Source of the DNA: an uncultured Gammaproteobacteria bacterium | GTDB lineage: Bacteria; Patescibacteriota; Microgenomatia; Daviesbacterales; UBA10151 | Reading direction: 5' to 3' | Assembly: GCA_964500725.1 (NCBI GenBank) | Contig: CAZCNP010000002.1 | Coordinates: forward strand, 133,347 to 197,346 | DNA: 64,000 nucleotides | Part shown: positions 11,648 to 39,763 of the stretch, piece after piece | How the letters are laid out: the number at the start of each line of letters is the position of its first letter | Numbering within the stretch: the stretch's first letter is position 1 | The notes under the pieces: model-generated | What the model saw: the letters and a program-made list of their open reading frames with translations, nothing else | Told to the model about the DNA's origin: nothing | The model's database searches: none | Translations under genes and position numbers: made by a program

Positions 11648-13385
<1,738 letters not shown>

Positions 13386-13386
<1 letters not shown>

Positions 13387-17967: not shown

Positions 17968-19052
17968 AATAAAGTATTAGTTAAGCCTTGATCTAGTGAT
18001 ATTTCCGGATTATAGCCCAAATCTTTTTTGGCTTTTCCAATTCGCGGACAACGGCGGTTAGGACTATCGGTTAAATAGTTTTTGTCATGACTTTTTTCCA
18101 TAACTATCTTCCCCCGATAGCCTAAATGTTTAACTGCCAAATCTGCCATAAGTTTAGCTAAATCATACATAGAAATTTCCGGCTTCTCAACTCCAATGTT
18201 ATAACTTTCGGCTGCTTTACCTTTCAGTAATACTTTTAAGTATCCAACTACTGCATCTGTAACATAACAAAATGTCCGCGTGGGAGAGCCGGTAGAGAGT
18301 AAAACAATATCCTTATTTGGTAAAATATTCTTAGCAAAATCAGGAATAACTCTGCCGTCAGTTATTTTCAAACCCGGTCCATAATTATTAAAGGGCCTGA
18401 CTATTTTAATAGGTAAATTGTGTGCTCTTGAGAAATTGACACAAAGAGTTTCACCAAATCTTTTTGATTCATCATAGCAAGCCCTCGGACCAGTACAGGA
18501 GACATTTCCGCGGTAAGTTTCCGGAGTAGGAATATTTTCCGGAGTAGGATCGCCATATATTTCGCTTGAAGAAAAAAACAACAATCCTTTGACCGGTTTT
18601 TTTATCCCTTTTCTTTTAACCAAATAATTTAAGATGTTATAAAGGCCCTGAACATTGGCATTAATGGTTTCTATTGGGTATTGGCGGTAAAAGATTGGTG
18701 AGGCAATAGAGGCTGCATGAATTATGTAATCAAACCTGACGGAGAGATCAGGTTGGTATCTTGTAATATCTGCTTTAACTGTCTTCAGGTCATTTCTTTT
18801 ACTTAGCCACTCCGGTACTCCATTTATAAAAGTATCTAAAGCATATAGGGTAATTTTCTTTTTTGGATTTATATCATTCCACAGCAGAAGTGATTTAATA
18901 AAATAATAACCTAAAAACCCGTTAGCTCCGGTAAAAAGAATAGTTTGATTTTTCAGAAGTTCAAACTCTTTTTTGGCTTTTGTATAGATGTACTTCAGAT
19001 CATTTTCTTCAACAGGAGTATTATTTATTGACATTATTTCCAGACTTTCCAT
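17943..19052 (-). CDS. UDP-glucuronate decarboxylase-like extended SDR (UXS/ArnA C-terminal domain family).
   Basis: SSSEIYGDP...GPRACYDESKRFGETLC...DGRVIPDF closely matches the UXS signature (GPRACYDEGKR..ET, DGRVVSNF). Confidence 0.7.
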   Translation of the reverse strand: MESLEIMSINNTPVEENDLKYIYTKAKKEFELLKNQTILFTGANGFLGYYFIKSLLLWNDINPKKKITLYALDTFINGVPEWLSKRNDLKTVKADITRYQPDLSVRFDYIIHAASIASPIFYRQYPIETINANVQGLYNILNYLVKRKGIKKPVKGLLFFSSSEIYGDPTPENIPTPETYRGNVSCTGPRACYDESKRFGETLCVNFSRAHNLPIKIVRPFNNYGPGLKITDGRVIPDFAKNILPNKDIVLLSTGSPTRTFCYVTDAVVGYLKVLLKGKAAESYNIGVEKPEISMYDLAKLMADLAVKHLGYRGKIVMEKSHDKNYLTDSPNRRCPRIGKAKKDLGYNPEISLDQGLTNTLLWYQQNSL

Positions 19053-19807
19053 TTGGGATCTTCATTCCAAAGTTTATTTAGATTGTTGACATCAGGATAA
19101 GTATCCATTGAATGCCAGAAACCATTGTGAGCATATATAGTCAGTTGTCCTTCTTTAATTAATCTTTTTAAAGCATCGTGTTCATATTCCCCTTTACCGA
19201 TATAGTCAAAAATTTTCTTTTTAAATATCATAAAACCACCATTTATCCAGTCATTCAAAACGGGTTTTTCTAAAAACTGGTAAGCAACTCCGTTTTTATT
19301 CATCGTTAAGATGCCATATCTGCTTCTGGGGTGTACCCCTGTAATCGTTCCAATCAAATTATGATCTCTGTGGAATTCAACCAACTGCTTGATATTGATA
19401 TCCGAAACACCGTCTCCATACGTAACCATAAAACTTTCATCATTTTCCGGTATAAAATCTCTTATTCTTAAAATCCGTTCTCCCGGTAAGGTTTCTTGGC
19501 CGGTGTCTACAAAAGTGATTTTAAAGTCATCCTTGTTATTTTGGTTACGATGAATTTTTGCGTGTCCGGTTTTTGTATACAGAGTAAAATCATCAGTGAA
19601 ATATTTTTGATTAAGAAAATAATCTTTAATATAATCACCTTTATATCCCAAAGCAATGATAAATTCATTAAACCCGTAGTGGGAATAAATCTTCATGATA
19701 TGCCAAAGAATTGGTTGACTGCCAATAAATACCATTGGTTTTGGTTTAAACTCGGTTTCTTCTTTTAATCTGTATCCAAGCCCGCCGCAAAGAATAACTA
19801 CTTTCAT
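19034..19807 (-). CDS. rfbF: Glucose-1-phosphate cytidylyltransferase (RfbF/DdhA-like).
   Basis: MKVVILCGGLGYRLKEETEFKPKPMVFIGSQPILWHIMKIYSHYGFNEFIIALGYKGDYIKDYF is near-canonical for RfbF. Confidence 0.8.
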   Translation of the reverse strand: MKVVILCGGLGYRLKEETEFKPKPMVFIGSQPILWHIMKIYSHYGFNEFIIALGYKGDYIKDYFLNQKYFTDDFTLYTKTGHAKIHRNQNNKDDFKITFVDTGQETLPGERILRIRDFIPENDESFMVTYGDGVSDINIKQLVEFHRDHNLIGTITGVHPRSRYGILTMNKNGVAYQFLEKPVLNDWINGGFMIFKKKIFDYIGKGEYEHDALKRLIKEGQLTIYAHNGFWHSMDTYPDVNNLNKLWNEDPKWKVWK

Positions 19808-19908
19808 AAGTCTTTAATTATTTGATTTTAATTATAAAGCTGATAATAGTCAAGAAATATTATAAATAGAATTTTTCAATTCTTTTTGTTAGTATATAAG
19901 GGCTTATT

Positions 19909-20616
19909 ATGGAAAGTTATGTTCAGCACTTACAGGAGATGTCTTCACCGCTGACTTTTATCAGAAAAAAAAGGTATATTGATTACAATTTAAAAAAATA
20001 TTTTAAAGAATTAGGCTATCAAAACTTACAGGTTTTAGAAGTGGGGCCAGGTTTGGGTGAATTTGAAAGCTATTTAAATGACAAGCGTGTTTATTCAATT
20101 GATATCGTTGATAATGATCAAACGATTTTAACCTATGTTACTAAACGATATAAAATAAATAGAAGCTTTTTATCCAAAAGTTTGAAAGATGTTGATAAAA
20201 AGCTAGGACAATACAACTTCATCTTTTTAATGCAGGTTTTGGAACACTTGCCTGCTTCGGAATACATCATTACTTTAAAACTTTTATACTCCCGTTTAAA
20301 CAAAAACGGCTATTTAATAATTGTGGTACCAAACGGGAATAATCCACTAGGTTTAATTGAAAGGTATGCTGATTTGCAGCATACAGGTTGTTTTACTCAA
20401 ACTTCTTTAAAAGACCTTGTGCGTACTTCAGGAATAAAAGATTACAAATTAGAAATAAAAGGATATGAAATACCACCATATGATTTTATTAATTTAATCA
20501 GGATTTTTTTACAAAAAATTCTCCACTTTATTTTATATTTAATTATGATAATTAATGGAGGAAACTATTTTAAGATTATGACCCCAAATATTGCACTAAT
20601 TATTAAAAAAAATTAG
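19909..20616 (+). CDS. Class I SAM-dependent methyltransferase.
   Basis: VLEVGPGLGEF...FIFLMQVLEHL. Confidence 0.5.
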   Translation: MESYVQHLQEMSSPLTFIRKKRYIDYNLKKYFKELGYQNLQVLEVGPGLGEFESYLNDKRVYSIDIVDNDQTILTYVTKRYKINRSFLSKSLKDVDKKLGQYNFIFLMQVLEHLPASEYIITLKLLYSRLNKNGYLIIVVPNGNNPLGLIERYADLQHTGCFTQTSLKDLVRTSGIKDYKLEIKGYEIPPYDFINLIRIFLQKILHFILYLIMIINGGNYFKIMTPNIALIIKKN

Positions 20617-20655
20617 TCTCAATATCTTAGGATTTGTTGGAACATTGTTCCCATT

Positions 20656-21699
20656 TCATTTATCGTATTTTAATACTAATTGCCGAATATTGTTGAAATC
20701 GCTAAAATAGCGGGATTTAGGATCATCAATCAGGCCGATACGGTCCTCCTTTCTTTTAGAAAATAAATATGTAGCATGTAGTAACCTTAAACTCCGGGCA
20801 AATATATTTGGAAAATTTTCTAAAAATAGATTCAGTCTAGCTGTTAGATGTTCTTGAGTAGATGTTTTAAAGTAATTTGGCATGCTTGAGTCAATCACCT
20901 TTGAGGTCTTAAATGACGTGATATTAAATTTTTTAAAAGCTGAAATAAGACATTTCTTAAACTTTGCAAAATCAGCATCATAAGTACCTTCTTTTTTTGC
21001 ATCCTGCAGGCTTGGCCAGTAGCTGTAAGAATGAGAAAATGCCTGTCTGGCAGCATAGAAGGTATTTAATCTTTTTATTTTTCCGTATGCAACAGTAAGC
21101 ATATCAGGAAGCAACTCTCCAAACAGGATGTGGTTAACTTTTGAGTTTAAAAACTTACTATAACAGGTTTTAACGAACCTTGTTCTTCGTACTGACCAAA
21201 GAACCAGATTGTAATTTGTTAAATGATAACCAAGTCTTTCTAGCGGATTAGGGTAAGTTATTGATTCATTGCGATAGAAAAATCTCCACCAGAATTGTTT
21301 TAAAAAAGAATTTTTATAAACATAAAAAGAAATATATGTACCGTGAGCAGCAGAATAATCAGGGTTCTTTTCCAAGAATTCTACAGCTTCATTTATGCCT
21401 TTTGGTACTATAAAATCGTCATCAGGGCAAAAAACACAATATTTACTCTTGGCATATCTAACCATTTCACCGAATTTTATATGAAAATTCATATTGCTGG
21501 AACATTTGTCCACGTATTTAATTTTTAAATGAGGGTATAAGGAAATATTTTTTTTGTTAATTTTCTTATTATTCTGATTACTGGAATCAACTATGAAGAT
21601 ATTAAAGTCCACATTATAGGAATTATAGTAATCTAAAATTCTTTTGAGAAATTTGGGTCTATTAAAAGTGGGGATAAATAAATCAACTTTATTGTTCAT
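20656..21699 (-). CDS. Putative GT-A-fold glycosyltransferase (GT2-like).
   Basis: VDLFIPTFNRPKFLKRILDYY...FIVDSS...CPDDDF (DxD-like). Confidence 0.45.
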   Translation of the reverse strand: MNNKVDLFIPTFNRPKFLKRILDYYNSYNVDFNIFIVDSSNQNNKKINKKNISLYPHLKIKYVDKCSSNMNFHIKFGEMVRYAKSKYCVFCPDDDFIVPKGINEAVEFLEKNPDYSAAHGTYISFYVYKNSFLKQFWWRFFYRNESITYPNPLERLGYHLTNYNLVLWSVRRTRFVKTCYSKFLNSKVNHILFGELLPDMLTVAYGKIKRLNTFYAARQAFSHSYSYWPSLQDAKKEGTYDADFAKFKKCLISAFKKFNITSFKTSKVIDSSMPNYFKTSTQEHLTARLNLFLENFPNIFARSLRLLHATYLFSKRKEDRIGLIDDPKSRYFSDFNNIRQLVLKYDK

Positions 21700-21715
21700 A
21701 CAAACGCTTGCTTAC

Positions 21716-22885
21716 TCACTTATCTAATCTATCCTTATTAAGGATCTTTATTAAAATATTGCATATATAATCAACATCAGATTTAGTTAGTTTAAACGAA
21801 TAGGGCAGACTTATTGTAAAAGGAGATAAGGCATAAGAAATGACGTTTTGTTTTTGATAATTCTTTTCTTTGCAATATTGCTTATAGGCTGGTTGAGAAC
21901 TAACAGGATAAAAGAAAGGTCTGGTATCTATGCCATATTTTTTAAATTCATCCATGATTTTTTCCTTTTCAATTTGATATTTGCCACATAATACGGCATT
22001 AATCATCCAAAAGGAGCTTTTTGTGCCGGGGGTTTCGGAATTTAATTTTATATCATCTATATTTTCCAGCCTTTTTTTATACCACTCATAGACTTGTCTT
22101 TTTTTGGATACGAGTTCGTCAAGGCGTCTTAGTTGGGCAAGCGCTAAAGCGGCTTGAATATTAGTCCATTGGTAGTTGTAACCGATTTCCACAGACCAGA
22201 AGGTTTTTTCATTGTAAGGAATCATTCCATGGTGATAAAGCTGCTCAAATCGGTCAAATAACTTTTTGTTATTTGTTGTTATCATTCCACCTTGGCCGGA
22301 CATCATGATTTTTGTGGCATTAAAAGAAAAGGCGCTGACACCACCAAAAGTACCCGCTTTTTCTCCCTGATATTCGGCCCCCATTGCTTCTGCGGCATCT
22401 TCAATTACATAAATTTTATGTTTTTTGGCAATTGCTAAAATATTTTTCATATCCGGCATATTGCCATACAAATCTACCAACATCACCGCTTTGGTTTTAG
22501 GGGTAATAAGTTTTTCAAATGAAGCAGGGGAAAGGCACCAGGTTTTAGGGTCGATATCGGCAAATATAGGTATAGCGCCTACATAAGTAATGGGGGCAAC
22601 CGAGGCAACCCAAGTAATGTCAGGGACAATTACTTCATCTCCGGGTTTAATACCTAATCCTAACATAGCTAGATGAAGAGCTGCTGTGCAGCTGGAAACA
22701 GGTAAACAATATTTGATTCCGGTGTAATTTGAAAATTCTTTAATAAATTGGTTAAGATGCATATTCCTGTTTTCATACCAGCCAATTTTTATTGCTTCTG
22801 TAACAAGTTTTACTTCTGCGTTAGTTACGGAAGGACCGCCTGAAGGTATTTTCCTATAATTTTTTTTAGTGGGTTTTTTATTCAT
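21716..22885 (-). CDS. DegT/DnrJ/EryC1/StrS-family PLP-dependent sugar aminotransferase.
   Basis: CTAALHLAMLGLGIKPGDEVIVPDITWVAS. FSFNATKIMMSGQGGMITT retains the catalytic Lys. Confidence 0.8.
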   Translation of the reverse strand: MNKKPTKKNYRKIPSGGPSVTNAEVKLVTEAIKIGWYENRNMHLNQFIKEFSNYTGIKYCLPVSSCTAALHLAMLGLGIKPGDEVIVPDITWVASVAPITYVGAIPIFADIDPKTWCLSPASFEKLITPKTKAVMLVDLYGNMPDMKNILAIAKKHKIYVIEDAAEAMGAEYQGEKAGTFGGVSAFSFNATKIMMSGQGGMITTNNKKLFDRFEQLYHHGMIPYNEKTFWSVEIGYNYQWTNIQAALALAQLRRLDELVSKKRQVYEWYKKRLENIDDIKLNSETPGTKSSFWMINAVLCGKYQIEKEKIMDEFKKYGIDTRPFFYPVSSQPAYKQYCKEKNYQKQNVISYALSPFTISLPYSFKLTKSDVDYICNILIKILNKDRLDK

Positions 22886-22888
22886 AGA

Positions 22889-23968
22889 TTAATTAATATG
22901 TTTTATCCAGCGCAGGTCGTCTGAAATATAACCGTTGCTAATTAGCCATTCCAATTTTTGCAACCGGTAAAAATTAATATTTTCAAATTGCTCTTTTGTT
23001 AGGTTAATTTCTTTAAACTTTTTCAACATGGCTTTAACGCTATTTTTTACAGTCCAATTGCACTCAAATCCTGGAAATACCTTTTTGATTTTATCAAATG
23101 AAATCTTATAGTTTCGGGAATCCACGCCATCTTGAATTTTTCGGTCCTTGATTAATTCTTTATTAATTTGAGTATTTGTTTGGTTAATAAAATTAATCTC
23201 ACAACCCTGAACTTGTTTTTTAACGATTTTGGTAAGGTCTAATATTTTATAATTTTCTGAAGTACTACCGACATTAATAATTACTTTCTGACTTATCGGG
23301 GGAGTATATTCAACCGCATATTTGATGGCTTTGCAAATATCGTTTACACAAACATTGGGTCTCCAAGCCTGCCCATTGGAATTTAAAATGATTTTTCCGG
23401 TGGTATAAGCCATGGCGGTAAACATATTGATAACTAAATCAAATCTCATTCTTGGAGATAAACCAAAAGCGGTGGCAAACCTAAAAATAATCGGAGTAAA
23501 ATTTTTATCGGTAATTTTTGCTAAGTCCTGTTCTATTTGTACTTTATTTAATGAATAAGGAGTTTGAGGGAAAACCGGTGAAGTCTCGTCAGAATATCCA
23601 TCAACCCCTTTACCGTATACTGAACAACTAGAGGAGAAAATAAATTTTATCCCTAACTTCTTACATAGTTTTGCTGTTTGTATAGTATGTTTTCTGACAG
23701 GATCATAGACTTTTACAAGATCCAAATTTTTAAAAGGATCATTCGAGATACCGGCTAAATAAATAACAGCATCAAACCCTTTGAGGTCTTTTGTGGTAAT
23801 ATCCCGAACATCTTTATATATTGTTTTGCAATCGTTTAGTGGGTAAAGCAGGCAATCTTTAATAAAACCTGTATCTATTCCCGAGACATTGTATCCATAT
23901 TGTACTAAATACGGTACCAAAACGCTGCCTATGTAACTTTGAGATCCTGTTACCAAAACTTTTTTCAT
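22889..23968 (-). CDS. NAD-dependent epimerase/dehydratase (extended SDR). Paralogous to 26636-27670.
   Basis: VLVTGSQSYIGSVL Rossmann motif. YSLNK (YxxxK). AYTTGKI...WRPNVCVNDIC shared with the paralog. Confidence 0.6.
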   Translation of the reverse strand: MKKVLVTGSQSYIGSVLVPYLVQYGYNVSGIDTGFIKDCLLYPLNDCKTIYKDVRDITTKDLKGFDAVIYLAGISNDPFKNLDLVKVYDPVRKHTIQTAKLCKKLGIKFIFSSSCSVYGKGVDGYSDETSPVFPQTPYSLNKVQIEQDLAKITDKNFTPIIFRFATAFGLSPRMRFDLVINMFTAMAYTTGKIILNSNGQAWRPNVCVNDICKAIKYAVEYTPPISQKVIINVGSTSENYKILDLTKIVKKQVQGCEINFINQTNTQINKELIKDRKIQDGVDSRNYKISFDKIKKVFPGFECNWTVKNSVKAMLKKFKEINLTKEQFENINFYRLQKLEWLISNGYISDDLRWIKHIN

Positions 23969-23971
23969 TGG

Positions 23972-24859
23972 CTAAATTTTATCATATTCTATGGTTTTCC
24001 TGAGGCCCATTTCGATGCTAAGCTTTGGGTGCCAGTTTATGGCTTGTTTTATTTTTGAGATATCGGCATAACTGGCCGATAAAGCATCGGTCGGCATTTG
24101 TTTTGACGTTTGATAGCCTCCACTTTTTTCGTAGATGTCATAAATTGTATTGATAATAGTTTGTACGCTTGTTAATCGCCCGGAACCAATATTAAAAATA
24201 CCGCTTTGGTTATACTCTAATACTAGTTTTGAAATAGCATCTGCCACGTCTTCTATGTAAATAAAGTCATTTTTGGCATCAGGGTTTCTGATTTCGGGTT
24301 CTTTTCCTTCTTTAAGACAATTTATAAGATATGAGATTAAGGAGGTGTTTTTTTGACCGGGTCCATAAACATAGAATAACCTTGTCCATAAAAAAAGCAT
24401 ATTATTTTCTATGGCAAATTCTTTGCCTATCCAATTAAGGGAATTTTTGGCGGCAGTAAAGCAATTGAAGGGTTCAACAGGCAAATCTTCCGATAATTTA
24501 CCCGGTATTTTGCCATATTCCCAGACACTACCTGTTACCAGCACTTTTCTACAATTTATTTTTAGCAATAATTGAATTAACTCTAATCCGTACTTTAAAT
24601 TCCGGATACTGTTTTTGGCACCGTAATCAGGTATTCCTTCCCATGCTAGATGGATTGTTGCATCCGGCTTAAATTTTTCTAAATCACCAGCCCAGTCATG
24701 AATACCTTCCAGGTTGCCTTCTAAAAATCGGATACCATCAGAAGATTTTCCGCCGTGAGGGTTTCTGGTAAGAAGCAATAAATCATTTTTCCCATTATCA
24801 AGCTTTTGGGTAACATATTTTCCAATAAAACCAGTTCCACCAGTGATGAAAATCCTCAT
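23972..24859 (-). CDS. NAD(P)-dependent sugar nucleotide epimerase/reductase (extended SDR, ~295 aa).
   Basis: MRIFITGGTGFIGKYV. Its size and its position after the cupin epimerase suggest a 4-reductase. Confidence 0.6.
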   Translation of the reverse strand: MRIFITGGTGFIGKYVTQKLDNGKNDLLLLTRNPHGGKSSDGIRFLEGNLEGIHDWAGDLEKFKPDATIHLAWEGIPDYGAKNSIRNLKYGLELIQLLLKINCRKVLVTGSVWEYGKIPGKLSEDLPVEPFNCFTAAKNSLNWIGKEFAIENNMLFLWTRLFYVYGPGQKNTSLISYLINCLKEGKEPEIRNPDAKNDFIYIEDVADAISKLVLEYNQSGIFNIGSGRLTSVQTIINTIYDIYEKSGGYQTSKQMPTDALSASYADISKIKQAINWHPKLSIEMGLRKTIEYDKI

Positions 24860-25419
24860 ACTTTTAATCCGCCGTACTTTTTAACAAACTCCTTGAAGCT
24901 TTGAGCTTTGGTATCCCTTTCAGAGATATCGGCAGGGGTCTTTATGGGCCAGTTAATGGCTAGATTGGGGTCATTCCACCTGATATTGTCATAACTCTCA
25001 GGTATAAAATACTCATCCATTTTATATAGTATTTGGCAATTAGGAGTTAGAGTACACATACACGGGGCACAGCCTTTGGGAATATAAATCTGATTCTTTT
25101 TTTCTGCAGATACCACAATCTGAATCCACTTACCAAAAGTTTTTTGTTTTGGTCTTAGATCGATAATGGTAAAAAGTATTTCTCCGGAGATTACCCGGAT
25201 TAATTTTGTTTCAGCGTATGGAGGATGTTGGAAGTGGATACCCCTGACTGTCCACTTCTCTTTGCTAAGAGAATGACTTTCCTGAATCCAATCCGTAACC
25301 AAACCGTGTTTTGCAAATATTTCTGCATCATAAGTTCTCATAAAAAATCCACGGGAATCAATATTTGGTTCAAGCTGAATTTCAAAAACACCCTTAATTT
25401 GTTTTTCTTCAATAACCAT
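24856..25419 (-). CDS. RmlC-like cupin, nucleotide-sugar 3,5-epimerase family.
   Basis: SRGFFMRTYD and VRGIHFQHPPYAETKLIRVISGEILFTIIDLRP are RmlC signatures. Confidence 0.7.
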   Translation of the reverse strand: MVIEEKQIKGVFEIQLEPNIDSRGFFMRTYDAEIFAKHGLVTDWIQESHSLSKEKWTVRGIHFQHPPYAETKLIRVISGEILFTIIDLRPKQKTFGKWIQIVVSAEKKNQIYIPKGCAPCMCTLTPNCQILYKMDEYFIPESYDNIRWNDPNLAINWPIKTPADISERDTKAQSFKEFVKKYGGLKV

Positions 25420-25437
25420 AAGTACTATTTTACAACT

Positions 25438-26631
25438 TTAAATAATCTTTTGAACTATTTGAAGTAAGCTCTTTTTAGGAGATACTAAAAATGTTTTGCA
25501 ACCTACTTCCTGCCCGGTTTGTTTATCCCGTATATCATCTCCAATAAAAATAGCTTTTGTTAAATCAATCTGGTGATCACGGCTGGCTTGTAGGAGTAAC
25601 CCTGGTTTTGGCTTTCGGCATTGACATCCTTCGTCCCATCCGTGGGTACAGACATAGATTCCATCTATTTTTGCCCCATTATTATTTAATTCCTTCAACA
25701 TATTCTTATGGATTAAATCTAAATCCTTTTTACTGAGAAAGCCCCTGGCTACCCCTGCTTGATTTGAAATGATAAATACCCTATATTCGTTATCGTTTAA
25801 AAGCTTTATTGCTTGAGTTGAATCCGGAAGAAATTTAAATTCCTTCCAGCTTTTAACATAGTCAGCCTTAGGAGCTTTTTTATTAATTACGCCGTCTCTA
25901 TCTAAAAATATTACCTTTTTGGGAATGAGGAACTTATTTATAATTTTTAATTTTTGCAGATCTCCAATACTATAATATTTTTGATCTGTTAAATACCCGG
26001 CAAGAGCCTCTTTTCTTATCAGCTTCGGCAATATTTCATTCTCAAACTTACAGTTTCCCTGAGGAAGCAACTTTAGGACTTTTTTATTGGCTATAAAAAA
26101 GCCTATATCAACAGCATTCAGATTTTTTTCTTTCCGATCAGGATCATATCCGGTGACGTAACCATTTTCTATCAGGATATTATTCTTTGTGGAATTATCT
26201 AAATTAGAAAAAGCGGTAATTAATATTTCAGAAGGATGGTCCTTGAAGAAATTAATATGCTTTTTAAGCTGTAGCGGCCAATAATTATCGCAGTATAGCA
26301 GCAAGAAATATTCATTTAGAAGTTTTTGTGCATTTTTGATTCGTATACCGCTTTTGTTTTCCAGCCCCTTTTCATCTAAAAACGGAGTATATGAATATTT
26401 AATCTTCATACCAAAGCTTGAACCATCACCGAAATATTTTTGGATTTTATCTTCCAAGTAACCGGTCAAAAGGACGATCTCCTTTATACCATTATCTTTT
26501 AATAAATTTATTAAGTATTCCAGAAAGGGTTTGCCGTTTATAGGAATTAAAGGTTTAGGATTTTTAAGTGTAAATGGCCGGAGTCTTCTTCCTTCGCCAC
26601 CTGCTAAAATTACAGCCTGGTTTATCTTCAT
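25438..26631 (-). CDS. Bifunctional fusion: N-terminal sugar-1-phosphate nucleotidyltransferase (HddC-like) and C-terminal D,D-heptose-1,7-bisphosphate phosphatase (GmhB-like HAD).
   Basis: N-terminus ILAGGEGRRLRPFT..KPLIPI (GGxGxRL). C-terminus VIFLDRDGVINKK...CQCRKPKPG...FIGDDIRD (GmhB DxD and Zn-binding CxC-like). Confidence 0.7.
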   Translation of the reverse strand: MKINQAVILAGGEGRRLRPFTLKNPKPLIPINGKPFLEYLINLLKDNGIKEIVLLTGYLEDKIQKYFGDGSSFGMKIKYSYTPFLDEKGLENKSGIRIKNAQKLLNEYFLLLYCDNYWPLQLKKHINFFKDHPSEILITAFSNLDNSTKNNILIENGYVTGYDPDRKEKNLNAVDIGFFIANKKVLKLLPQGNCKFENEILPKLIRKEALAGYLTDQKYYSIGDLQKLKIINKFLIPKKVIFLDRDGVINKKAPKADYVKSWKEFKFLPDSTQAIKLLNDNEYRVFIISNQAGVARGFLSKKDLDLIHKNMLKELNNNGAKIDGIYVCTHGWDEGCQCRKPKPGLLLQASRDHQIDLTKAIFIGDDIRDKQTGQEVGCKTFLVSPKKSLLQIVQKII

Positions 26632-26635
26632 GATT

Positions 26636-27670
26636 TTAAGTCCAGTAGAGGTTTTTATCTATTTTTCTCTGTTCAAGCAAGTATTTAACTTGTGGCAGGC
26701 GGTTACATTTCCTGCCTCTGAAATCTTCCTCGGTAAAATCGATTGATTTAAAAAATTCTACCAATTCTTTACCCCCTTTATCCAGATCCCACGCAGGTTT
26801 ATAGTAGTTTTTTAAGACTGATAAAATTTTTTTAAAAGAGACTTTGTAAGTTCTGGAGTCATTGCCATGTTCTCCGGTAAATGTTAAAGAACTTCCTGAT
26901 ACAGCTCTTTGGGCAGCTTCAGCCAGATCCCTGACGGTATAGTTTCCGTTTTTGATACCAACGTTGAAAGATTGGTTGCCAACTAATCTTGCAGGTGCTT
27001 CTAGTCCGGCAATATATGCCGAGCAAACATCCCTAACATGTACTACCGGACGCCAAGGAGTACCATCACTTTTAATTTCAATCTTGCCTGTTGTATAGGC
27101 ACAGGCCACTAAGTTATTAAAAACAATGTCACATCTTAAGCTTGGACTGGCACCAAAAATCGTGGAAGGCCTGAAGCAAATAACAGTAAAATCATCTGAT
27201 GAAAGCTTTTTAAGTCCGCATTCTGCCTGCCATTTTGTTTTAGCATACTCTGTAATGGGATTTTTGGTGCTATTATCTTCATCTAACTCACTGGCGGTAT
27301 CAGATATTCCATACATGCTCTGAGAAGAAGAATAAATAAACCTTTTTACTCCTGCTTGTTTGGCCAACTTTGCCAATTTGATGGTAGCTTTATAATTTAT
27401 ATTTTTGGTAAGTAGGGGATTGAGTTGTCCTACCGGATCGTTTGAAAGAGCAGCCAGATGAATAATAAAATCTATGCCTTTGAGATCTTCTTTAGAGACT
27501 TGTCTAATATCTTTAGTGATTTGTTTAATTTTTGCTGAGGTTTTTGGTAAAGGACATAATTTTTGATAATAATTAGTATCAAAACCAACTACTTCATATC
27601 CTCGTTGTATTAAAATATCAGTCAATACTGATCCGATATACCCTAAATTTCCGGTGACAAGAATTTTCAT
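26636..27670 (-). CDS. NAD-dependent epimerase/dehydratase (extended SDR). Candidate GDP-heptose dehydratase or epimerase.
   Basis: MKILVTGNLGYIGSVL. YAKTK (YxxxK). Located inside the heptose gene block. Confidence 0.6.
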   Translation of the reverse strand: MKILVTGNLGYIGSVLTDILIQRGYEVVGFDTNYYQKLCPLPKTSAKIKQITKDIRQVSKEDLKGIDFIIHLAALSNDPVGQLNPLLTKNINYKATIKLAKLAKQAGVKRFIYSSSQSMYGISDTASELDEDNSTKNPITEYAKTKWQAECGLKKLSSDDFTVICFRPSTIFGASPSLRCDIVFNNLVACAYTTGKIEIKSDGTPWRPVVHVRDVCSAYIAGLEAPARLVGNQSFNVGIKNGNYTVRDLAEAAQRAVSGSSLTFTGEHGNDSRTYKVSFKKILSVLKNYYKPAWDLDKGGKELVEFFKSIDFTEEDFRGRKCNRLPQVKYLLEQRKIDKNLYWT

Positions 27671-27675
27671 ATAAA

Positions 27676-28281
27676 TTATTCTTTTGTATTATTTTCTTCA
27701 AGATAATCAAAATAGTTTTTAAAGTATTTGGTCATTAGGTGCAAGATGACGGAGTGTATTCCCTCAACTAGTTCATATTCGCCTTTTTTGGTTTTAACTT
27801 TAATCTTGGCATCGGCTAATTTATTAAGAAGTCCACCATCGAAACCTGATACACCAATTACTGGAAGCCGATATCTTTTTGCCAGCTTAACTGCTTTAAC
27901 AACATTCATTGAATTACCGGAAGATGAAATTGCAATTACGGCATCTCCTTCTTTAATATAGTTTTGCAAGGGTCCGGCGAAAATCATTTCAAAAGAGACA
28001 TCATTAGCCCAGGCGGTTAATTCTTCTTCCGTGGTGGGGATACGAATTGCCTGAAACCGGCGAATATTTTTATCCAGGTGATGAGCAAAAACAGTTTTAT
28101 TGAAATCAGCTACAAAGTGTGTTGCCATTGCTAGCGATCCGCCGTTTCCAAATACATAAATTTTGCCATCCCTCTCATAAGTTGCCTGCAAAATATTTAC
28201 TGCCTTTGCGATCTCTTCGTGAGGCAAAGTCTGTAATATTTTAACGCTTTTTTCAATATAGTTAACTATATATTGTTTCAT
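27676..28281 (-). CDS. gmhA: Phosphoheptose (sedoheptulose-7-P) isomerase, SIS domain.
   Basis: KIYVFGNGGSLAMATHFVADF...AISSSGNS matches the GmhA SIS motifs. Confidence 0.75.
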   Translation of the reverse strand: MKQYIVNYIEKSVKILQTLPHEEIAKAVNILQATYERDGKIYVFGNGGSLAMATHFVADFNKTVFAHHLDKNIRRFQAIRIPTTEEELTAWANDVSFEMIFAGPLQNYIKEGDAVIAISSSGNSMNVVKAVKLAKRYRLPVIGVSGFDGGLLNKLADAKIKVKTKKGEYELVEGIHSVILHLMTKYFKNYFDYLEENNTKE

Positions 28282-29291
28282 TTTAGATTAAATATACTAT
28301 TTGAAACCACTTCCACTCCGGAATGAACGAATTTAATAGGGACCTCCTGAAAATTTAGGAGATTATTTCTCCTGGCAGCTTTTTTGATAGCTGCTTTAAC
28401 AGCTTCCCTTTTTTTTGGTGAAACAAGAAAAAGAAGACATCCGCCTCCACCTGCACCTAATAATTTTCCTCCCCATGCTCCGTTACTGAATCCAGTTGAA
28501 TAAAGTTTGTCGATAATATTGTTGGAAATCTTGGATGCCAGCTTTCTTTTTTCTAGCCAATTCTCATGAAGTATCCCGCCCAGAGATTTAAAATCTCCTT
28601 TTAGGAGTTTTTCTTTAAATAAGTCAACTGATTCTGCCATTGATTTTAGCCTTTCGAAATTAGACCGGATTCCTGATTTTTGTTCTATCAGAATATCTGA
28701 AGCTTGCCTTGTGATACCGGTAAAAAAGATTAACATGTGATTTTCTAAATCGATCCGTTTTTTATAATCTAAAAGTATAGGTTCTATGTCTACAGTCTCA
28801 TCCGGATTAAATTTAAAAACATTAAAACCACCAAAGCTGGCAGCGTATTGGTCTTGTTTGCCAATAGGATCTTTGATTAGATCAATCTCGATTTTGCACG
28901 CCTTTTCAGCCAAGTCTTTTTTATCCAGTCTTTTTCCCAGGTAAGCAGAGAATCCTTTTATCAGCGCTACTGTAAAACTCGATGAGGCACCGAGGCCGGT
29001 ACCAACTTTCATATGTGAAAAAGTGCCTATTTCCATATAATCATTTATATTTAAGATAGCCATTGTTTCCCTGATACGATTATTTTTTAAATCCTTAGCG
29101 TATTTTACGTTTTCAATTTCAGAATAACGAGCAATGATTCCTTGCAGCAAAGGAGCAGGGTTAATAGCGACATAAACGTATTTGTCTATAGTAGCGGAGA
29201 TAACCTTACCTTGATGTAATCTATAAAAATCCGGTAAATCCGTTCCGCCGCCAACAAAACTGATTCTGAGTGGAGCTCTTACAATAATCAT
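28278..29291 (-). CDS. hddA: GHMP-family sugar kinase, D-glycero-alpha-D-manno-heptose-7-phosphate kinase-like.
   Basis: RAPLRISFVGGGTDLPDFY N-terminus. GTGLGASSSFTVAL GHMP ATP-binding motif. GAGGGGC C-terminal motif. Confidence 0.7.
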   Translation of the reverse strand: MIIVRAPLRISFVGGGTDLPDFYRLHQGKVISATIDKYVYVAINPAPLLQGIIARYSEIENVKYAKDLKNNRIRETMAILNINDYMEIGTFSHMKVGTGLGASSSFTVALIKGFSAYLGKRLDKKDLAEKACKIEIDLIKDPIGKQDQYAASFGGFNVFKFNPDETVDIEPILLDYKKRIDLENHMLIFFTGITRQASDILIEQKSGIRSNFERLKSMAESVDLFKEKLLKGDFKSLGGILHENWLEKRKLASKISNNIIDKLYSTGFSNGAWGGKLLGAGGGGCLLFLVSPKKREAVKAAIKKAARRNNLLNFQEVPIKFVHSGVEVVSNSIFNLK

Positions 29292-29314
29292 GCAACTGGC
29301 TAGGATTATATCAT

Positions 29315-30169
29315 CTATTTAAGATATTTTAATAGATACGTAAGCTCCAATAGCATACCTAGCTTTTGGTTTTTTCTTTTTTTGACAAAAAAATCTCTTG
29401 CTCCGACGCTTTCATTTAGTTTTTGTGACTCCGGATATTTAAAAGGAACCTCTACGCTTTTAACCCTGAGGCCAGCTTTTAAGGCGGCAACAATAGGAAA
29501 AAAAATAGTGTTGGAATACTTTTCCGGATCAAAAATCTCATCTTGTGGGATATCCTTAAATATTTTTAAATAATCTCTAATGAACAATTCTAAGTTTGTT
29601 GTAGTATTTGCAAATATCCGGGGTCCGAAAAACATATCTAATTCCTCATCTTGACCGGAGAGCAGATTATGTAGTTTTAATTGTTTATTATATAATCTGT
29701 TCCCTTCAGTTTCTAAATAATACATATAATCAGGAAAAGATTTTTGAAATAATTTATCGTTTCTTTTTGCTATGATAATATCAGCCTTGTTTTCTAAGAT
29801 AGGTTTTGCAAGTATAGGGATACTATCAATTAGTGAAGTTTTCTCCGGTTCGGTGGCTATAATTACCCTGATACCAGGTAATTTTGAAGCAGCTATAAAG
29901 GCCTGGCGTTTAGCAGGAGATGATTGGATAGAATTTCGTTCAATGATTTTTAGATTTTTCTTAAATCTTAGAAGTTCTTTTCGGAAATTTTTCGAGTTTT
30001 TATTATGGACAACAACAACCTGATAATTTTCGATAACTGCTTTATTGATAAATTCTAATGCTAAATCCCCCCGTACCTTGTCCGTATGAGAAATATTTTT
30101 TAGTTTACCTTGATACCAAAGCGGATAATAGGTAATCAATGCAAATGCAACTGATTTGGGACCAAACAT
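29315..30169 (-). CDS. Hypothetical protein, possibly a glycosyltransferase-like (Rossmann) fold.
   Basis: 284 aa ORF with no recognisable motif. Placed by context only. Confidence 0.3.
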   Translation of the reverse strand: MFGPKSVAFALITYYPLWYQGKLKNISHTDKVRGDLALEFINKAVIENYQVVVVHNKNSKNFRKELLRFKKNLKIIERNSIQSSPAKRQAFIAASKLPGIRVIIATEPEKTSLIDSIPILAKPILENKADIIIAKRNDKLFQKSFPDYMYYLETEGNRLYNKQLKLHNLLSGQDEELDMFFGPRIFANTTTNLELFIRDYLKIFKDIPQDEIFDPEKYSNTIFFPIVAALKAGLRVKSVEVPFKYPESQKLNESVGARDFFVKKRKNQKLGMLLELTYLLKYLK

Positions 30170-30260
30170 TTTTAAATCATAACATATCTAATTCAGATGA
30201 AAATAAGAGTATGTGGTAACATTTACATAAGAAGTTCAAGAGAGTACAATATTTTAAATT

Positions 30261-31004
30261 ATGAAAACACTTAAGAAGCGATCACCAAAAGTTATCGGTA
30301 TTATGATGACTTATAACTGTGCTGATATGATTGAAAGTACATATAAAAAATTACCAAAAGGAGTTTTTAGTCAAGTTATTGTAGTTGATGACGATTCCAA
30401 AGATAATTCGGTTGAAGTGGCAAAACGTTTGAAACTCAATGTTTATACTCACAAGCATGGAGGTTATGGTGCAAACATTAAATATGGTCTGAAAAAAGTA
30501 TTGTCTTTGGGGGCTGATTATGCAGTCGAAATACATGGTGATGGTCAATACGACCAATCGGTTGTGCCGGCCGCTATCAAAAAAATGGAAACAGGTTTTG
30601 ATTTTTTATTGGGGTCCCGTTTTACTAATCTGAAGCATGCAATTAATGATGGTATGCCACTTGAAAGATATTTTGCTAATTTGGGCTTAAGTTTTATTGA
30701 TAGAATTATCTTGGGTGTTAATCTAACTGAATTCCACACAGGATTTAGGGTTTACAGCAAACGTTTCATTGAAAGTTTAACTTACGAGGGGACATCAGAT
30801 AATTACCTTTATAGTTTCGAGATTATCTGCCAGGCAAAATTTAATGATATGAAAATCGGTGAAGTTCCTATGCGTTGTGACTACAAAGCGGCGCATACAT
30901 CTATTAGTATCAAAAAATCAATTATTTATGCACTCGGAACTTTTGCCATATTAGGAAAATATATTCTAGCCAAAATGGGAGCAAGGGTTAAGATTTTTAA
31001 ATAG
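30261..31004 (+). CDS. Glycosyltransferase family 2 (Dpm1/GtrB-like soluble form).
   Basis: VIGIMMTYNCADMIE...VIVVDDDSKDNS...GGYGANIKYG. Confidence 0.65.
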   Translation: MKTLKKRSPKVIGIMMTYNCADMIESTYKKLPKGVFSQVIVVDDDSKDNSVEVAKRLKLNVYTHKHGGYGANIKYGLKKVLSLGADYAVEIHGDGQYDQSVVPAAIKKMETGFDFLLGSRFTNLKHAINDGMPLERYFANLGLSFIDRIILGVNLTEFHTGFRVYSKRFIESLTYEGTSDNYLYSFEIICQAKFNDMKIGEVPMRCDYKAAHTSISIKKSIIYALGTFAILGKYILAKMGARVKIFK

Positions 31005-31016
31005 TGTAATTTTAGT

Positions 31017-31682
31017 ATGACCGAAATTTTTGTTATCTGCCACGCCGAAGTAATCTATCCAGTTGATGATCAAGGCAGGAAATTAATGTACCCCCCAGAA
31101 ACTCATTTAAGTGATGAAGGTAGAAATCAGTTCAGGTCTTTTGCGATGGGTTTAAGAAATAAAGGAATTGAATTAGATCTTATTGAAACAAGCCCTTATG
31201 TTCGAGCTTATGAATCAGCTATAATTCTTGCAAGTGTTTTTGGAATAAAAGAGCCTGTGAAAAATCAAAATCTTATAGACTCCTATATTCCAGGCTGGAT
31301 TGGTATTCCATTAAGTGAACAACAGAAGCTTGTGGATAAGGGAGAAGATATATATCAATATCCACGTACTGAAAACCAGGAGTCGTATGAACATATAGCC
31401 AGGCGAATGTTCGAAGAATTTAGGAACATTATTAGAAGAAATGATAGCAAGATAGTCACAATCATAAGTCACGGAGACCCTATCCGTTTACTAATGTATA
31501 GATTGGGTCATCCGGAGGGGAGTATACCTAATATGAGTATTTTAAGTAAGGACGGATACTTAAAAAGAGGTGAAGCTTTTCGTGTCAAAGCAGATCAAGA
31601 AGGCAGAATTTTAGAAGCAGAGTTAGTTAGTAATAGGGAAGGGACTGCGGGAGAAAGAGAACTGTATAAAGATAGTCCTTAA
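31017..31682 (+). CDS. Histidine-phosphatase superfamily (phosphoglycerate-mutase-like) protein.
   Basis: IFVICHAEV (RHG-like catalytic His region) and SHGDPIRLL (second His motif). Confidence 0.45.
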   Translation: MTEIFVICHAEVIYPVDDQGRKLMYPPETHLSDEGRNQFRSFAMGLRNKGIELDLIETSPYVRAYESAIILASVFGIKEPVKNQNLIDSYIPGWIGIPLSEQQKLVDKGEDIYQYPRTENQESYEHIARRMFEEFRNIIRRNDSKIVTIISHGDPIRLLMYRLGHPEGSIPNMSILSKDGYLKRGEAFRVKADQEGRILEAELVSNREGTAGERELYKDSP

Positions 31683-31695
31683 GTAAACTAAAAAT

Positions 31696-32418
31696 ATGAG
31701 TGAGAAACCAATAATTGAAATGACACCAAGAGCTGCCCCGATAGAATTTTCTGAAAGCGAACAATGGTGGCAGGGTGCAGAAAAAGCCTATAATTTGCTT
31801 TGTAATGACAGGCCAGCTAAACCCTGTGACATTCTTTACTTTTTCGGCCGTTCTTATTTTGATGCACCCAAGAAAAGTTTTTATGGTTTAGCAGTCAATT
31901 TATATCAGCAAGGGATGGTTAGAAAAATTATAGTCCCCGGCACAGAGGGAGAACGACTGGGTGAAACCATACCCGGAATGGCTCACCCTGGTAAAACGGC
32001 AATGAAAAACCGTTTAGTAAGAATGGGTGTTGCAGAAGAAGATGTAGTATTCAGCAAGCCAGGATATCACACTAAACAAGAAGGTGATGCTTTTTTGGAT
32101 TATTCCATGGAAAATTCTCTGCATAGAGCAATAGCTTTTACTAATCCACATCAGATAGTGCGGGCAATGCTCGGTCTTGTCAGAACAATTAATGATAAGA
32201 GTTTATCCCTTGAAACTTATACTGCTGTACCTGATCCAGAAAAATTTGATTGGGGGAGGATGGTGAAAGGTTCCCAAGGGCAAAAGCTTGAACCGGTATT
32301 CAAACATTTTTATGAAGAACTCTCCAGAATTTCCCGTTATCAGCAAAAAGGTGATCTGGCTGGTTTTGAGGAATTGTTTGAATATATGAATATTCGAAAC
32401 AGCAGAAGACCTACTTAG
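31696..32418 (+). CDS. DUF218 (YdcF/ElyC/SanA)-like protein. Paralog 3.
   Basis: IAFTNPHQIVRAMLGL core motif. VPGTEGE... upstream is similar to YdcF-like proteins. Confidence 0.45.
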   Translation: MSEKPIIEMTPRAAPIEFSESEQWWQGAEKAYNLLCNDRPAKPCDILYFFGRSYFDAPKKSFYGLAVNLYQQGMVRKIIVPGTEGERLGETIPGMAHPGKTAMKNRLVRMGVAEEDVVFSKPGYHTKQEGDAFLDYSMENSLHRAIAFTNPHQIVRAMLGLVRTINDKSLSLETYTAVPDPEKFDWGRMVKGSQGQKLEPVFKHFYEELSRISRYQQKGDLAGFEELFEYMNIRNSRRPT

Positions 32419-36908: not shown

Positions 36909-36916
36909 ACTATAAA

Positions 36917-37849: not shown

Positions 37850-38235
37850 AGTTTGAACACTTAGCTTTAAATGTAAAAGATCCGCTTAATTTAGTGAAAT
37901 GGTATTGCGAAAACTTAGGTTTCTCAGTTGTTAAGGGGATGGATGCTCCACCTTTCGCTCATTTTATAGTTGATTCTTCAAAACATATACTACTTGAGAT
38001 TTTTTATTTAGATGATAAAGAAGTAATAGATTTTTCTGGAGTCGATCCTGCTTCTGTGCATCTTGGTTTTTCTGTTGAAGATATAGAAGAAGAATATAAA
38101 AAACTTATTTCAGCAGGAGCTATGGCCGTCAGTGAAATTACCCTTACAAACAGTGGAGATAAAATAGTAATGCTACGTGATCCCTGGGGAACTCCGGTTC
38201 AATTACTTAAAAGAAAAGGGGCAATGATAAAATAA
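37846..38235 (+). CDS. VOC/glyoxalase-family small protein.
   Basis: FEHLALNVKD...HLGFSVEDIEE. 129 aa, betaalphabetabetabeta-type pattern. It overlaps the upstream stop (ATGA). Confidence 0.45.
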   Translation: MKFEHLALNVKDPLNLVKWYCENLGFSVVKGMDAPPFAHFIVDSSKHILLEIFYLDDKEVIDFSGVDPASVHLGFSVEDIEEEYKKLISAGAMAVSEITLTNSGDKIVMLRDPWGTPVQLLKRKGAMIK

Positions 38236-38239
38236 AAAG

Positions 38240-39756: not shown

Positions 39757-39763
39757 ATAATTC

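Follow-up and report, generated by a model that had tools for sequence, protein, structure and literature searches.

The DNA analysed here is a 64-kb stretch of contig CAZCNP010000002.1 (hereafter the window), and the element of interest within it is a minus-strand operon in which genes for heptose activation are interleaved with genes for a cupin, a DegT-family aminotransferase, a family 2 glycosyltransferase (GT2) and three short-chain dehydrogenases/reductases (SDR1, SDR2 and SDR3). We propose, with moderate confidence, that this operon directs the synthesis of a nucleoside diphosphate-activated (NDP-), probably GDP-activated, 4-amino-4-deoxy-heptose beside an epimerised heptose, for use in a surface glycan. 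The amine would most likely reside at C4, because the closest solved structure to SDR3 is 6VO6, which we take to be Campylobacter Cj1427, i.e. the GDP-heptose C4-dehydrogenase of the 6-hydroxy-heptose branch, because the aminotransferase is nearest to GDP-perosamine synthases, and because the formyltransferases that accompany this gene set in other genomes match 4-amino-sugar formyltransferases. GDP-perosamine synthases act on a substrate whose ring has the D-lyxo configuration, as does that of the Cj1427 product. A role in surface-glycan synthesis is supported by the Wzx, ABC-2 transporter and several glycosyltransferase genes of the window.

A preliminary description of this DNA had listed an operon of nine minus-strand genes, from the kinase gene to the glycosyltransferase gene (table 1), and all of them are present as open reading frames (ORFs) in this order and at these coordinates; the span given for the cluster, 21716–29291, however, misses both the GT2 gene (20656–21699) and a 284-aa ORF (29315–30169) at the opposite end. 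Junctions within the nine-gene block are operon-like, ranging from -4 to +18 nt (4-nt overlaps or gaps of 3–18 nt), and in the ORF list the uninterrupted same-strand run covers 20656–30169, with its widest junction (23 nt) between the 284-aa ORF and the kinase gene and with a divergent gene at 30261 and the convergent methyltransferase gene (19909–20616) as its limits. Pfam E values of 1e-9 to 1e-110, with NCBIfam in agreement, put the domain assignments well outside chance, and since the same gene arrangement is kept in many unrelated genomes, it does not represent a chance juxtaposition. The run 20656–29291, possibly up to 30169, is one operon within a surface-glycan island. Related loci were sampled in two ways: 80 SDR1 loci (L007–L086; 56–76% identity; many on truncated contigs) came from a scan of species-representative genomes, and three further loci (L087–L089) were sampled independently through DegT homologues. 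The 284-aa ORF has no match in Pfam or NCBIfam, has no counterpart in L007–L086 and is encoded only by contigs identical to the window. A promoter and terminator scan of 19500–31200 was uninformative, with promoter-like sites not exceeding their frequency in shuffled sequence; the source, a metagenome-assembled genome, has a G+C content of about 33%.

Table 1. Genes of the operon, in the order kinase to glycosyltransferase, and its immediate neighbours (positions in the window).
Gene product	Position	Strand	Basis or remark
284-aa ORF, family unassigned	29315–30169	-	heads the same-strand run; ends 23 nt before the kinase gene starts; pathway membership uncertain
HddA-like GHMP kinase	28278–29291	-	NF049969; PDB heptose-phosphate kinases
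GmhA-like SIS_2 sedoheptulose-7-phosphate isomerase	27676–28281	-	PF13580, full length
SDR1, Cj1427-like extended SDR, 344 aa; proposed NDP-heptose C4-dehydrogenase	26636–27670	-	PDB 6VO6/6VO8
Fusion of sugar-1-phosphate nucleotidyltransferase and GmhB-like heptose-1,7-bisphosphate 7-phosphatase	25438–26631	-	PF00483 + HAD-IIIA
RmlC-type cupin; proposed 4-keto-heptose C3/C5 epimerase	24856–25419	-	PF00908
SDR2, atypical extended SDR, 295 aa; proposed terminal 4-ketoreductase	23972–24859	-	PF01370
SDR3, second Cj1427-like SDR, 359 aa; proposed keto-generating dehydrogenase feeding DegT	22889–23968	-	PDB 6VO6
Perosamine-synthase-like DegT aminotransferase	21716–22885	-	PF01041
GT2 glycosyltransferase; proposed amino-heptose transferase	20656–21699	-	TIGR04440 domain
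SAM methyltransferase, convergent	19909–20616	+	PF13489

Kinase, isomerase, nucleotidyltransferase and phosphatase would together constitute a module for making heptose-1-phosphate and NDP-heptose, and this assignment is well supported at the family level. In the PDB, the kinase is closest to heptose-phosphate kinases (4usm/4usk, 3k85 and 4n3o, E 1e-42 to 1e-44, with fucokinase as the next family at 1e-14), and its best NCBIfam model is HddA (NF049969, E 5e-52). For the SIS protein, GmhA and DiaA account for the 15 best PDB matches; its SxSGxS phosphate-binding loop and the histidine equivalent to GmhA H180 are kept, and the glutamate equivalent to E65 is replaced by aspartate throughout its family. 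In the fusion protein, an NTP_transferase domain (PF00483, residues 6–228) precedes a HAD-IIIA domain (residues 238–388) that matches 3l8h and 4pnh, i.e. D,D-heptose 1,7-bisphosphate phosphatase, and contains the DxD motif (DRDGV) as well as the Zn-binding CxH...CxC loop, CTHGWDEGCQCRKP. The nucleotidyltransferase half matches the nucleotidyltransferase of the 6-deoxy-mannoheptose pathway (5xhw/6jq8, E 9e-16), and its fusion to the phosphatase argues for heptose-1-phosphate as its substrate. As to the nucleotide, GDP is most probable, because the kinase is of the HddA type, because SDR1 and SDR3 resemble a GDP-heptose enzyme and because DegT resembles GDP-perosamine synthases; HddA-type kinases belong to the alpha-anomer, i.e. 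GDP, route of heptose activation. In two further related loci (L092 and L094), genes of the heptosyltransferase family Glyco_transf_9 flank the cassette.

A central issue is whether the SDRs of the operon remove the C6 hydroxyl group of the heptose or leave it in place. The preliminary description had favoured removal by analogy with the Campylobacter 6-deoxy-heptose routes (DdahA/B/C or MlghB/C), with SDR1, the cupin and SDR2 acting as dehydratase, epimerase and reductase and with DegT then producing an amino-dideoxy-heptose. At first sight, the gene content indeed looks like that of a dehydratase/epimerase/reductase set, PF16363 (GDP_Man_Dehyd) matches all three SDRs, and DegT resembles perosamine synthase, the natural substrate of which is a 4-keto-6-deoxy sugar. 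PF16363 matches are, however, generic among extended SDRs. Among solved structures, SDR1 is nearest to 6VO6/6VO8 (E 4e-37, 34% identity), with which it has the motifs SSQSMYG, YAKTK and FGASPSLRCD in common, and SDR3 also finds 6VO6 as its best PDB match (E 1e-24, 30% identity), the three proteins being united by the motifs (S/T)-(Q/C/N)-S-x-Y-G, YxxxK and FGxSPxxRxD. The acid/base motif T-(S/D)-E of dehydratases was looked for in all SDRs, and none has the acidic pair, with S-Q-S in SDR1, S-C-S in SDR3 and S-V-W in SDR2 at this position. In NCBIfam, the gmd model TIGR01472 is absent from the match lists of SDR1 and SDR2 and marginal for SDR3 (E 5e-4), and no structure of GMD or another dehydratase occurs among the PDB matches of SDR1 at E<1e-10. 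Retention of the C6 hydroxyl thus appears more likely than its loss, given that SDR1 and SDR3 lack the dehydratase acid/base pair and have 6VO6 as nearest solved relative. The 6-deoxy model was rejected on the basis of motif inspection and of NCBIfam and PDB searches, which revealed no dehydratase, and we leave it a small residual probability only. What stands of the earlier proposal is a modified and probably aminated heptose, which remains likely; the DdahA/WcbK-type analogy is unsupported, as none of the SDRs is GMD-like, the 6-deoxy trio has neither a 4,6-dehydratase nor an Fcl-like catalytic triad in SDR2, and a 6-deoxy or amino-dideoxy sugar is unlikely with no 4,6-dehydratase among the SDRs. 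Likewise, SDR3 does have a paralogue in the operon, as had been stated, but this is SDR1 (37% identity, 209 bits in blastp) and not SDR2, which yields no blastp match to SDR3 and is unrelated to both at this level.

A C4-oxidising role of SDR1 is also suggested by its partners in related loci, all of which need a 4-keto sugar: C-methyltransferases, an RfbH equivalog (684 bits) in L088 and a C4-type aminotransferase in L089. These 4-keto-consuming partners support SDR1 as the C4 oxidant and, by the same token, SDR2 as the terminal reductase. The chemistry of Cj1427 has been described, including a tightly bound NADH that is recycled by alpha-ketoglutarate in a ping-pong mechanism (PMC10680097).

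The cupin between the fusion gene and the SDR2 gene (PF00908, E 3e-54) passes the cut-off of the rmlC model TIGR01221 by 0.65 bits (156.4 versus 155.75). Clustering with RmlC had been named in the preliminary description as an outcome that would speak against modification of a GDP-heptose, and the cupin is indeed nearer to dTDP RmlC structures (E 2e-39) than to the GDP-heptose 3,5-epimerases 7m14/8db5/8dco (~1e-11); RmlA, RmlB and RmlD equivalogs, however, were found in none of the scanned ORFs of the 64-kb window, and the cupin gene is syntenic with those for SDR1, SDR2 and the heptose enzymes in about 49 loci. With no RmlA, RmlB or RmlD across the window, we rejected dTDP-rhamnose synthesis as an explanation of the cupin. 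In a more general form, the tailoring genes could serve some hexose pathway (dTDP-rhamnose-like, CDP-hexose, or GDP-mannose to a perosamine-like sugar) that just lies beside a heptose module. Besides the RmlC-like cupin, this would be in line with a CDP-glucose-type cytidylyltransferase, an RfbH-like 3-dehydrase, three C-methyltransferases and an Fcl-like SDR encoded in the window and with the label 'perosamine synthetase' which DegT homologues carry in JGI annotation. Yet GMD is missing from the scanned window ORFs just as the Rml enzymes are, tailoring and heptose genes are interleaved in a single operon, and they co-occur in dozens of distant loci, with genes for the nucleotidyltransferase–HAD fusion in 57, the GHMP kinase in 55, SDR2 in 54, the cupin in 49, a sugar C-methyltransferase in about 48 and the SIS protein in 44 of the 80 SDR1 loci. 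As this co-occurrence and the existence of SIS–SDR1 fusion proteins show, the tailoring genes belong with the heptose genes rather than with a neighbouring hexose pathway, and a hexose product seems similarly improbable as a 6-deoxy-heptose, if not slightly more so.

SDR2 is an atypical extended SDR. It belongs to PF01370 and has only weak and unspecific relatives in the PDB and NCBIfam (GalE, HldD, Rmd and Fcl), the alignment with Fcl being partial (E 2e-9). Its F133 aligns with the catalytic tyrosine of 4zrm and HldD, and phenylalanine is conserved here in 90% or more of some 50 orthologues. SDR2 hence does not correspond to the 'Fcl-like reductase' it had been taken for: the Ser/Thr-Tyr-Lys triad is broken by the Tyr-to-Phe replacement, and similarity to Fcl is weak. 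Across the SDR2 family, the lysine and the glycine motif for NAD(P) binding are intact, and a W-E-Y-G motif is conserved after the catalytic serine. In L088 (3039–11155), the full RfbH equivalog, a 3-dehydrase, is encoded between the cupin and SDR2 and thus precedes the latter, an arrangement that implies a 3-deoxy-heptose before amination.

The aminotransferase is, as judged from gene order, a separate plug-in module that comes with SDR3. It was previously placed downstream of the SDR–cupin–SDR trio, but SDR3 lies directly upstream of DegT in 12 of the 12 loci with a DegT orthologue (nine SDR1-sampled loci and L087–L089). DegT itself (PF01041, E 1e-109) retains the pyridoxal phosphate-binding lysine, as had been noted (K192, in SFNATK), and its best PDB matches are 7b0m (1e-82) and the perosamine synthetases 3bn1/3dr4/3dr7 (about 1e-78). 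The GT2 protein scores 187 bits against a cut-off of 70 with TIGR04440. A TIGR04440-type GT2 gene follows directly downstream of all nine SDR1-sampled DegT orthologues (48–77% identity). The three loci reached through DegT homologues (55–61% identity) contain the same heptose cassette, with GT2 directly downstream of DegT in L087 and L088 and a weak 27% match two genes downstream in L089. Further genes are inserted between SDR3 and DegT in a number of relatives, i.e. a sugar N-formyltransferase gene in L013, L034, L036, L088 and L089 and GNAT acyltransferase genes in L007, L023, L029, L036 and L087; in L043 an N-formyltransferase gene directly follows SDR3 before the contig ends. The unit is also joined by gene fusions (SDR3–GNAT, GNAT–DegT and, in L084, formyltransferase–DegT). 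The operon in the window represents the minimal form, SDR3–DegT–GT2, with no acyltransferase gene.

Loci that lack DegT place other enzymes behind SDR3, such as an aldo-keto reductase in L049, L091 and L093. Since every partner of SDR3 consumes a keto-sugar, the most plausible role of SDR3 is that of a net dehydrogenase. In L019, L020, L040, L041, L058, L066, L092 and L094, which include Saccharibacteria loci, SDR3 is followed by a DUF6016 protein (about 158 aa), a thiamine pyrophosphate (TPP)-dependent pair resembling pyruvate dehydrogenase E1 or transketolase, and TylF/CmcI-type methyltransferases; this variant suggests C-branched, methylated heptoses. Pyruvate-dehydrogenase-E1-like TPP enzymes are known to branch keto-sugars in the avilamycin (AviB1/B2) and aldgamycin-type pathways, and the E1 alpha/beta or transketolase-like pair fills the aminotransferase slot after SDR3 in these relatives of the operon, which again supports SDR3 as a keto-sugar generator; in contrast to those pathways, the window itself has no TPP variant, and we know of no TPP enzyme of the SDR3–TPP type that has been characterised on heptoses. 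Near the cassette of L007 there are also genes for a thiolase and a ketoacyl reductase, possible sources of a 3-hydroxybutyryl group. Orthologues of the convergent methyltransferase (52–66% identity) adjoin the GT2 orthologue or lie at most two genes from it, on the opposite strand, in L007, L011 and L013, and a DUF5672 protein (12583–13386 in the window) recurs near this GT2/methyltransferase end in L011 and in L013 (10586–11380; 48–54% identity).

In the pathway we propose, the isomerase, the kinase and the nucleotidyltransferase–phosphatase fusion would generate an NDP-heptose, most probably with GDP as the nucleotide, in steps 1 to 4. SDR1 would then oxidise C4 and leave the C6 hydroxyl in place (step 5), the RmlC-type cupin would epimerise C3 and/or C5 (step 6) and SDR2 would reduce C4 to yield an epimerised D-glycero-heptose (step 7), following the logic of the Campylobacter HS:2 pathway. 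SDR3 would produce a keto-heptose for DegT (step 8), either from unmodified NDP-heptose, i.e. in a parallel branch, or from the product of SDR2, and DegT would introduce the amino group, most likely at C4, giving a 4-amino-4-deoxy-heptose that could be described as a 6-hydroxy, seven-carbon homologue of perosamine (step 9). The TIGR04440-type GT2 would finally transfer this amino-heptose (step 10), with relatives of the operon N-formylating or N-acylating the amine. More speculatively, should SDR3 work by the same ping-pong mechanism as Cj1427, its NADH would be recycled by the alpha-ketoglutarate that DegT releases, such that the net reaction would be heptose-OH + L-Glu -> heptose-NH2 + L-2-hydroxyglutarate.

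The same set of enzymes may, however, work with a different regiochemistry, with SDR3 oxidising the finished, SDR2-reduced heptose at C2, C3 or the C6/C7 side chain and DegT producing a 2-, 3-, 6- or 7-amino-heptose. This alternative is the main rival of amination at C4, though a less likely one. In many loci, the gene for SDR3 adjoins or overlaps that for SDR2, and DegT is always accompanied by SDR3 even though SDR1 already provides a 4-keto sugar; the pairs of SDR3 and an aldo-keto reductase would amount to a pointless re-epimerisation of C4 after a C4 reductase, and DegT also matches the side-chain transaminase of Kdo8N (E 2e-50). Moreover, L089 (5291–11707), with the order SDR1–cupin–second aminotransferase–SDR3–formyltransferase–GNAT.DegT, has no SDR2, its place being taken by the C4-type aminotransferase after the cupin; together with SDR3–DegT and two N-acyltransferases this fits a diamino-heptose, although the layout could also mean two different amino-heptoses. 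On the other hand, the nearest solved relative of SDR3 is a presumed C4-dehydrogenase, the nearest characterised relatives of DegT are C4 aminotransferases acting on GDP-4-keto sugars, the associated formyltransferases point to 4-amino sugars, and the SDR3 module is separable from the SDR1 module (in L091 and L093), as expected of a parallel branch. Amination at C4 in such a parallel branch explains not only this separability but also L089, as making two 4-amino-heptoses with two acyltransferases, and the aldo-keto reductase variant, as making a C4 epimer.

Several points nevertheless weigh against a GDP-activated 4-amino-heptose as the product. Every heptose-pathway match remains below its NCBIfam equivalog cut-off (HddA 177 versus 600 bits, TIGR00441 gmhA 98 versus 209, PRK08942 GmhB 162 versus 178 and HddC 74 versus 300), and the 'complete GDP-D,D-heptose pathway' of the preliminary description is accordingly supported at the family level only, with none of the four activities reaching an equivalog cut-off. 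Mannose-1-phosphate guanylyltransferase, MurU and other models score higher than HddC on the nucleotidyltransferase half, so that GDP is at best the probable nucleotide, and some related loci (L063) have an enzyme resembling glucose-1-phosphate cytidylyltransferase instead. The affinity of the cupin to dTDP RmlC has to be added here, and with its catalytic tyrosine replaced, the putative reductase role of SDR2 is uncertain. The PDB labels 6VO6 only as a 'putative sugar-nucleotide epimerase/dehydratase', so that its identity with Cj1427 is presumed, and L064 (Pelagibacteraceae AG-893-P07) has, besides an SDR1 with 64% identity to that of the window, a closer orthologue of 6VO6 (53% identity, 342 bits); SDR1 and the presumed Cj1427 coexist there and thus may not be isofunctional. 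This 6VO6 orthologue of L064 sits in a Campylobacter-like gene set. Finally, with SDR1 already supplying a 4-keto-heptose there seems little need for a second C4-dehydrogenase, and the obligate SDR3–DegT link, the aldo-keto reductase variant and L089 are all open to the reading that SDR3 acts at another carbon.

One may also envisage a large family of horizontally spread, heptose-diversifying cassettes, built around an unusually constrained, Cj1427-like SDR1 and hosted by bacteria, candidate phyla radiation (CPR) lineages and DPANN-type archaea. SDR3 would here be a plug-in second dehydrogenase that, like DegT, acts away from C4, possibly on the side chain; a transaminase (with an N-formyl- or N-acyltransferase), TPP enzymes that add a C-branch or a further reductase would then act on its keto product, yielding amino-, diamino- and branched heptoses unreported in glycans, and the tyrosine-less SDR2 and the ultra-conserved SDR1 would perform chemistry beyond simple reduction and oxidation. 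We regard this extended scheme as rather unlikely in its entirety.

The cassette is widespread in mostly uncultured bacteria, CPR lineages and archaea. More than 7,700 database proteins match SDR1 at E<1e-20, with the top 120 clusters 70–86% identical, and the hosts of SDR1 loci comprise Gammaproteobacteria, Pelagibacteraceae, Planctomycetes, Omnitrophota, Nitrospirae, Bacteroidota, Actinobacteria, many CPR lineages and Nanoarchaeota; at least one carrier, Alteromonas nitratireducens CYL-A6, has been cultured. The locus of this strain (L082) contains SDR3–DegT–GT2, and that of Methylophilaceae TrH-20 (L059), likewise a cultured carrier, has the SDR3–DUF6016 variant. By synteny, the nearest genome is that of a gammaproteobacterium (L007; metagenome-assembled), with 56–81% amino acid identity across the operon. 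The median identity of SDR1 is 67% (74 loci) versus 33–45% for its cassette partners in the same loci. Taken locus by locus, the identity of SDR1 exceeds that of the kinase in 54 of 54 cases and that of SDR2 in 52 of 52.

Among characterised systems, the D-glycero-heptose pathway of Campylobacter jejuni HS:2 (Cj1427/Cj1430/Cj1428), and not DdahA/B/C or MlghB/C, is the closest match. Both systems would start by making NDP-D,D-heptose and go on to oxidation at C4 with no deoxygenation, epimerisation by a cupin of the RmlC fold and a final reduction, and the similarity of SDR1 and SDR3 to 6VO6 extends to their active-site motifs, which is a matter of homology only. Identities to Campylobacter HS:2 are low, however: dTDP RmlC rather than the Cj1430 type is nearest to the cupin, SDR2 stems from a different SDR lineage, with phenylalanine for the catalytic tyrosine, nucleotidyltransferase and phosphatase are fused, and the second Cj1427-like SDR and the aminotransferase have no counterpart there; the 12 GDP-heptoses described for Campylobacter include no amino-heptose. 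The 6-deoxy-heptose routes of C. jejuni, Burkholderia pseudomallei (WcbK/WcbJ) and Yersinia pseudotuberculosis (DmhA/DmhB) have the same GDP-D,D-heptose precursor genes, and structures of WcbL-type kinases are the best PDB match of the operon kinase, but the GMD-like 4,6-dehydratase that defines these routes is absent from the operon.

The amination step, by contrast, is closest to the GDP-perosamine pathway (GMD plus Per/RfbE), with DegT matching perosamine synthetases at E 4e-78 and with relatives of the operon adding an N-formyl- or N-acyltransferase after the transaminase, as WbkC and PerB do in making N-formyl- and N-acetyl-perosamine, respectively. It would differ from that pathway in that a Cj1427-like dehydrogenase, instead of GMD, supplies the keto sugar, which has seven carbons and keeps its 6-hydroxyl group, and the genes are found amid those for heptose activation and not with ManB/ManC/GMD. 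A 4-amino-4-deoxy-heptose is known from the L-heptosamine of septacidin, a nucleoside antibiotic of Streptomyces, where SepI, SepJ, SepA and SepG carry out C4 oxidation, C5/C3 epimerisation and C4 transamination, starting from ADP-L,D-heptose and acting on the heptose attached to adenine (PMC9978623). The operon resembles this route in chemical logic and aminotransferase class only, as the GMC-family FAD oxidase, the TIM-barrel C5-epimerase and the VOC C3-epimerase of septacidin synthesis are not homologous to the SDRs and the cupin; the sole VOC protein of the window (37846–38235) lies in another gene group. Septacidin was also the only hit in a literature search for amino-heptose biosynthesis, amino-heptoses in glycans and GDP-heptose aminotransferases, a weak negative given its incomplete coverage (PMC9978623).

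Around the operon, the window is a glycan island with several further sugar pathways, and for export it encodes a flippase (Wzx) as well as an ABC-2 transporter. Housekeeping genes are absent from the window. A nonulosonic-acid gene set of the legionaminic/pseudaminic type covers 36054–44211 (NeuB 43153–44211, CBS-DegT 41729–43156, CMP-transferase 38240–38968, PtmA-like SDR 38965–39756). One may ask whether the operon makes a GDP-hexosamine precursor for this pathway, with PtmE/PtmF-like activation and LegB/LegC-like steps. The best NCBIfam match of DegT is indeed the LegC family (293 bits), SDR1 weakly matches LegB, NeuB, CBS-DegT, CTP_transf_3 and the PtmA-like SDR are encoded 15–20 kb away, and NeuB genes adjoin the cassette in L087–L089. 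The LegC and LegB scores, however, are far under their cut-offs, the kinase, SIS_2 isomerase and Zn-loop phosphatase are of the heptose type and not of the GlmS/PgmL type, and the nonulosonic-acid cluster has its own aminotransferase (41729–43156), all of which makes such a supply function very improbable. NeuB-type genes near the cassette in L087, L088 and L089 may mean that nonulosonic acid and heptose occur in one glycan.

A CDP-hexose set consists of a glucose-1-phosphate cytidylyltransferase (19034–19807; 290 bits, cut-off 300), an SDR extended at its N-terminus by roughly 35 residues (17943–19052) and the RfbH-like 3-dehydrase (34798–36015; 320 bits, cut-off 423). The three sugar C-methyltransferases (1135–2433, 15311–16591 and 32415–33689) are paralogues of the Methyltransf_13/14, TylC3 type, and the first of them, here 24 kb from the operon, is the best match (32–38% identity) to the SDR1-adjacent C-methyltransferase of most related cassettes. 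A phosphonate cluster (55263–58824) encoding a phosphoenolpyruvate mutase with an N-terminal cytidylyltransferase-like domain, a TPP-dependent phosphonopyruvate-decarboxylase-like protein and an Fe-alcohol dehydrogenase suggests a phosphonate-decorated glycan; it is followed by a gene of the CDP-glycerol glycerophosphotransferase family (58850–60148). Three large ORFs (6005–9448, 51402–53591 and 60154–62082, encoding 1147, 729 and 642 aa) are devoid of any Pfam match.

What is known of heptose tailoring comes almost entirely from work on Campylobacter, Burkholderia and Yersinia, for which no amino-heptose in nucleotide-activated form has been described. The cassette, for which our literature search found no biochemical description, predicts an unreported class of sugars, and this prediction is directly testable, as the substrates are accessible with published enzymes and a cultured carrier exists. 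If it is true, N-acylated amino-heptoses would constitute a new sugar class of prokaryotic surface glycans, the enzymes could be used for the chemoenzymatic synthesis of rare heptoses, and Cj1427-type dehydrogenase chemistry would be widespread far beyond Campylobacter, including CPR bacteria, SAR11 and small archaea.

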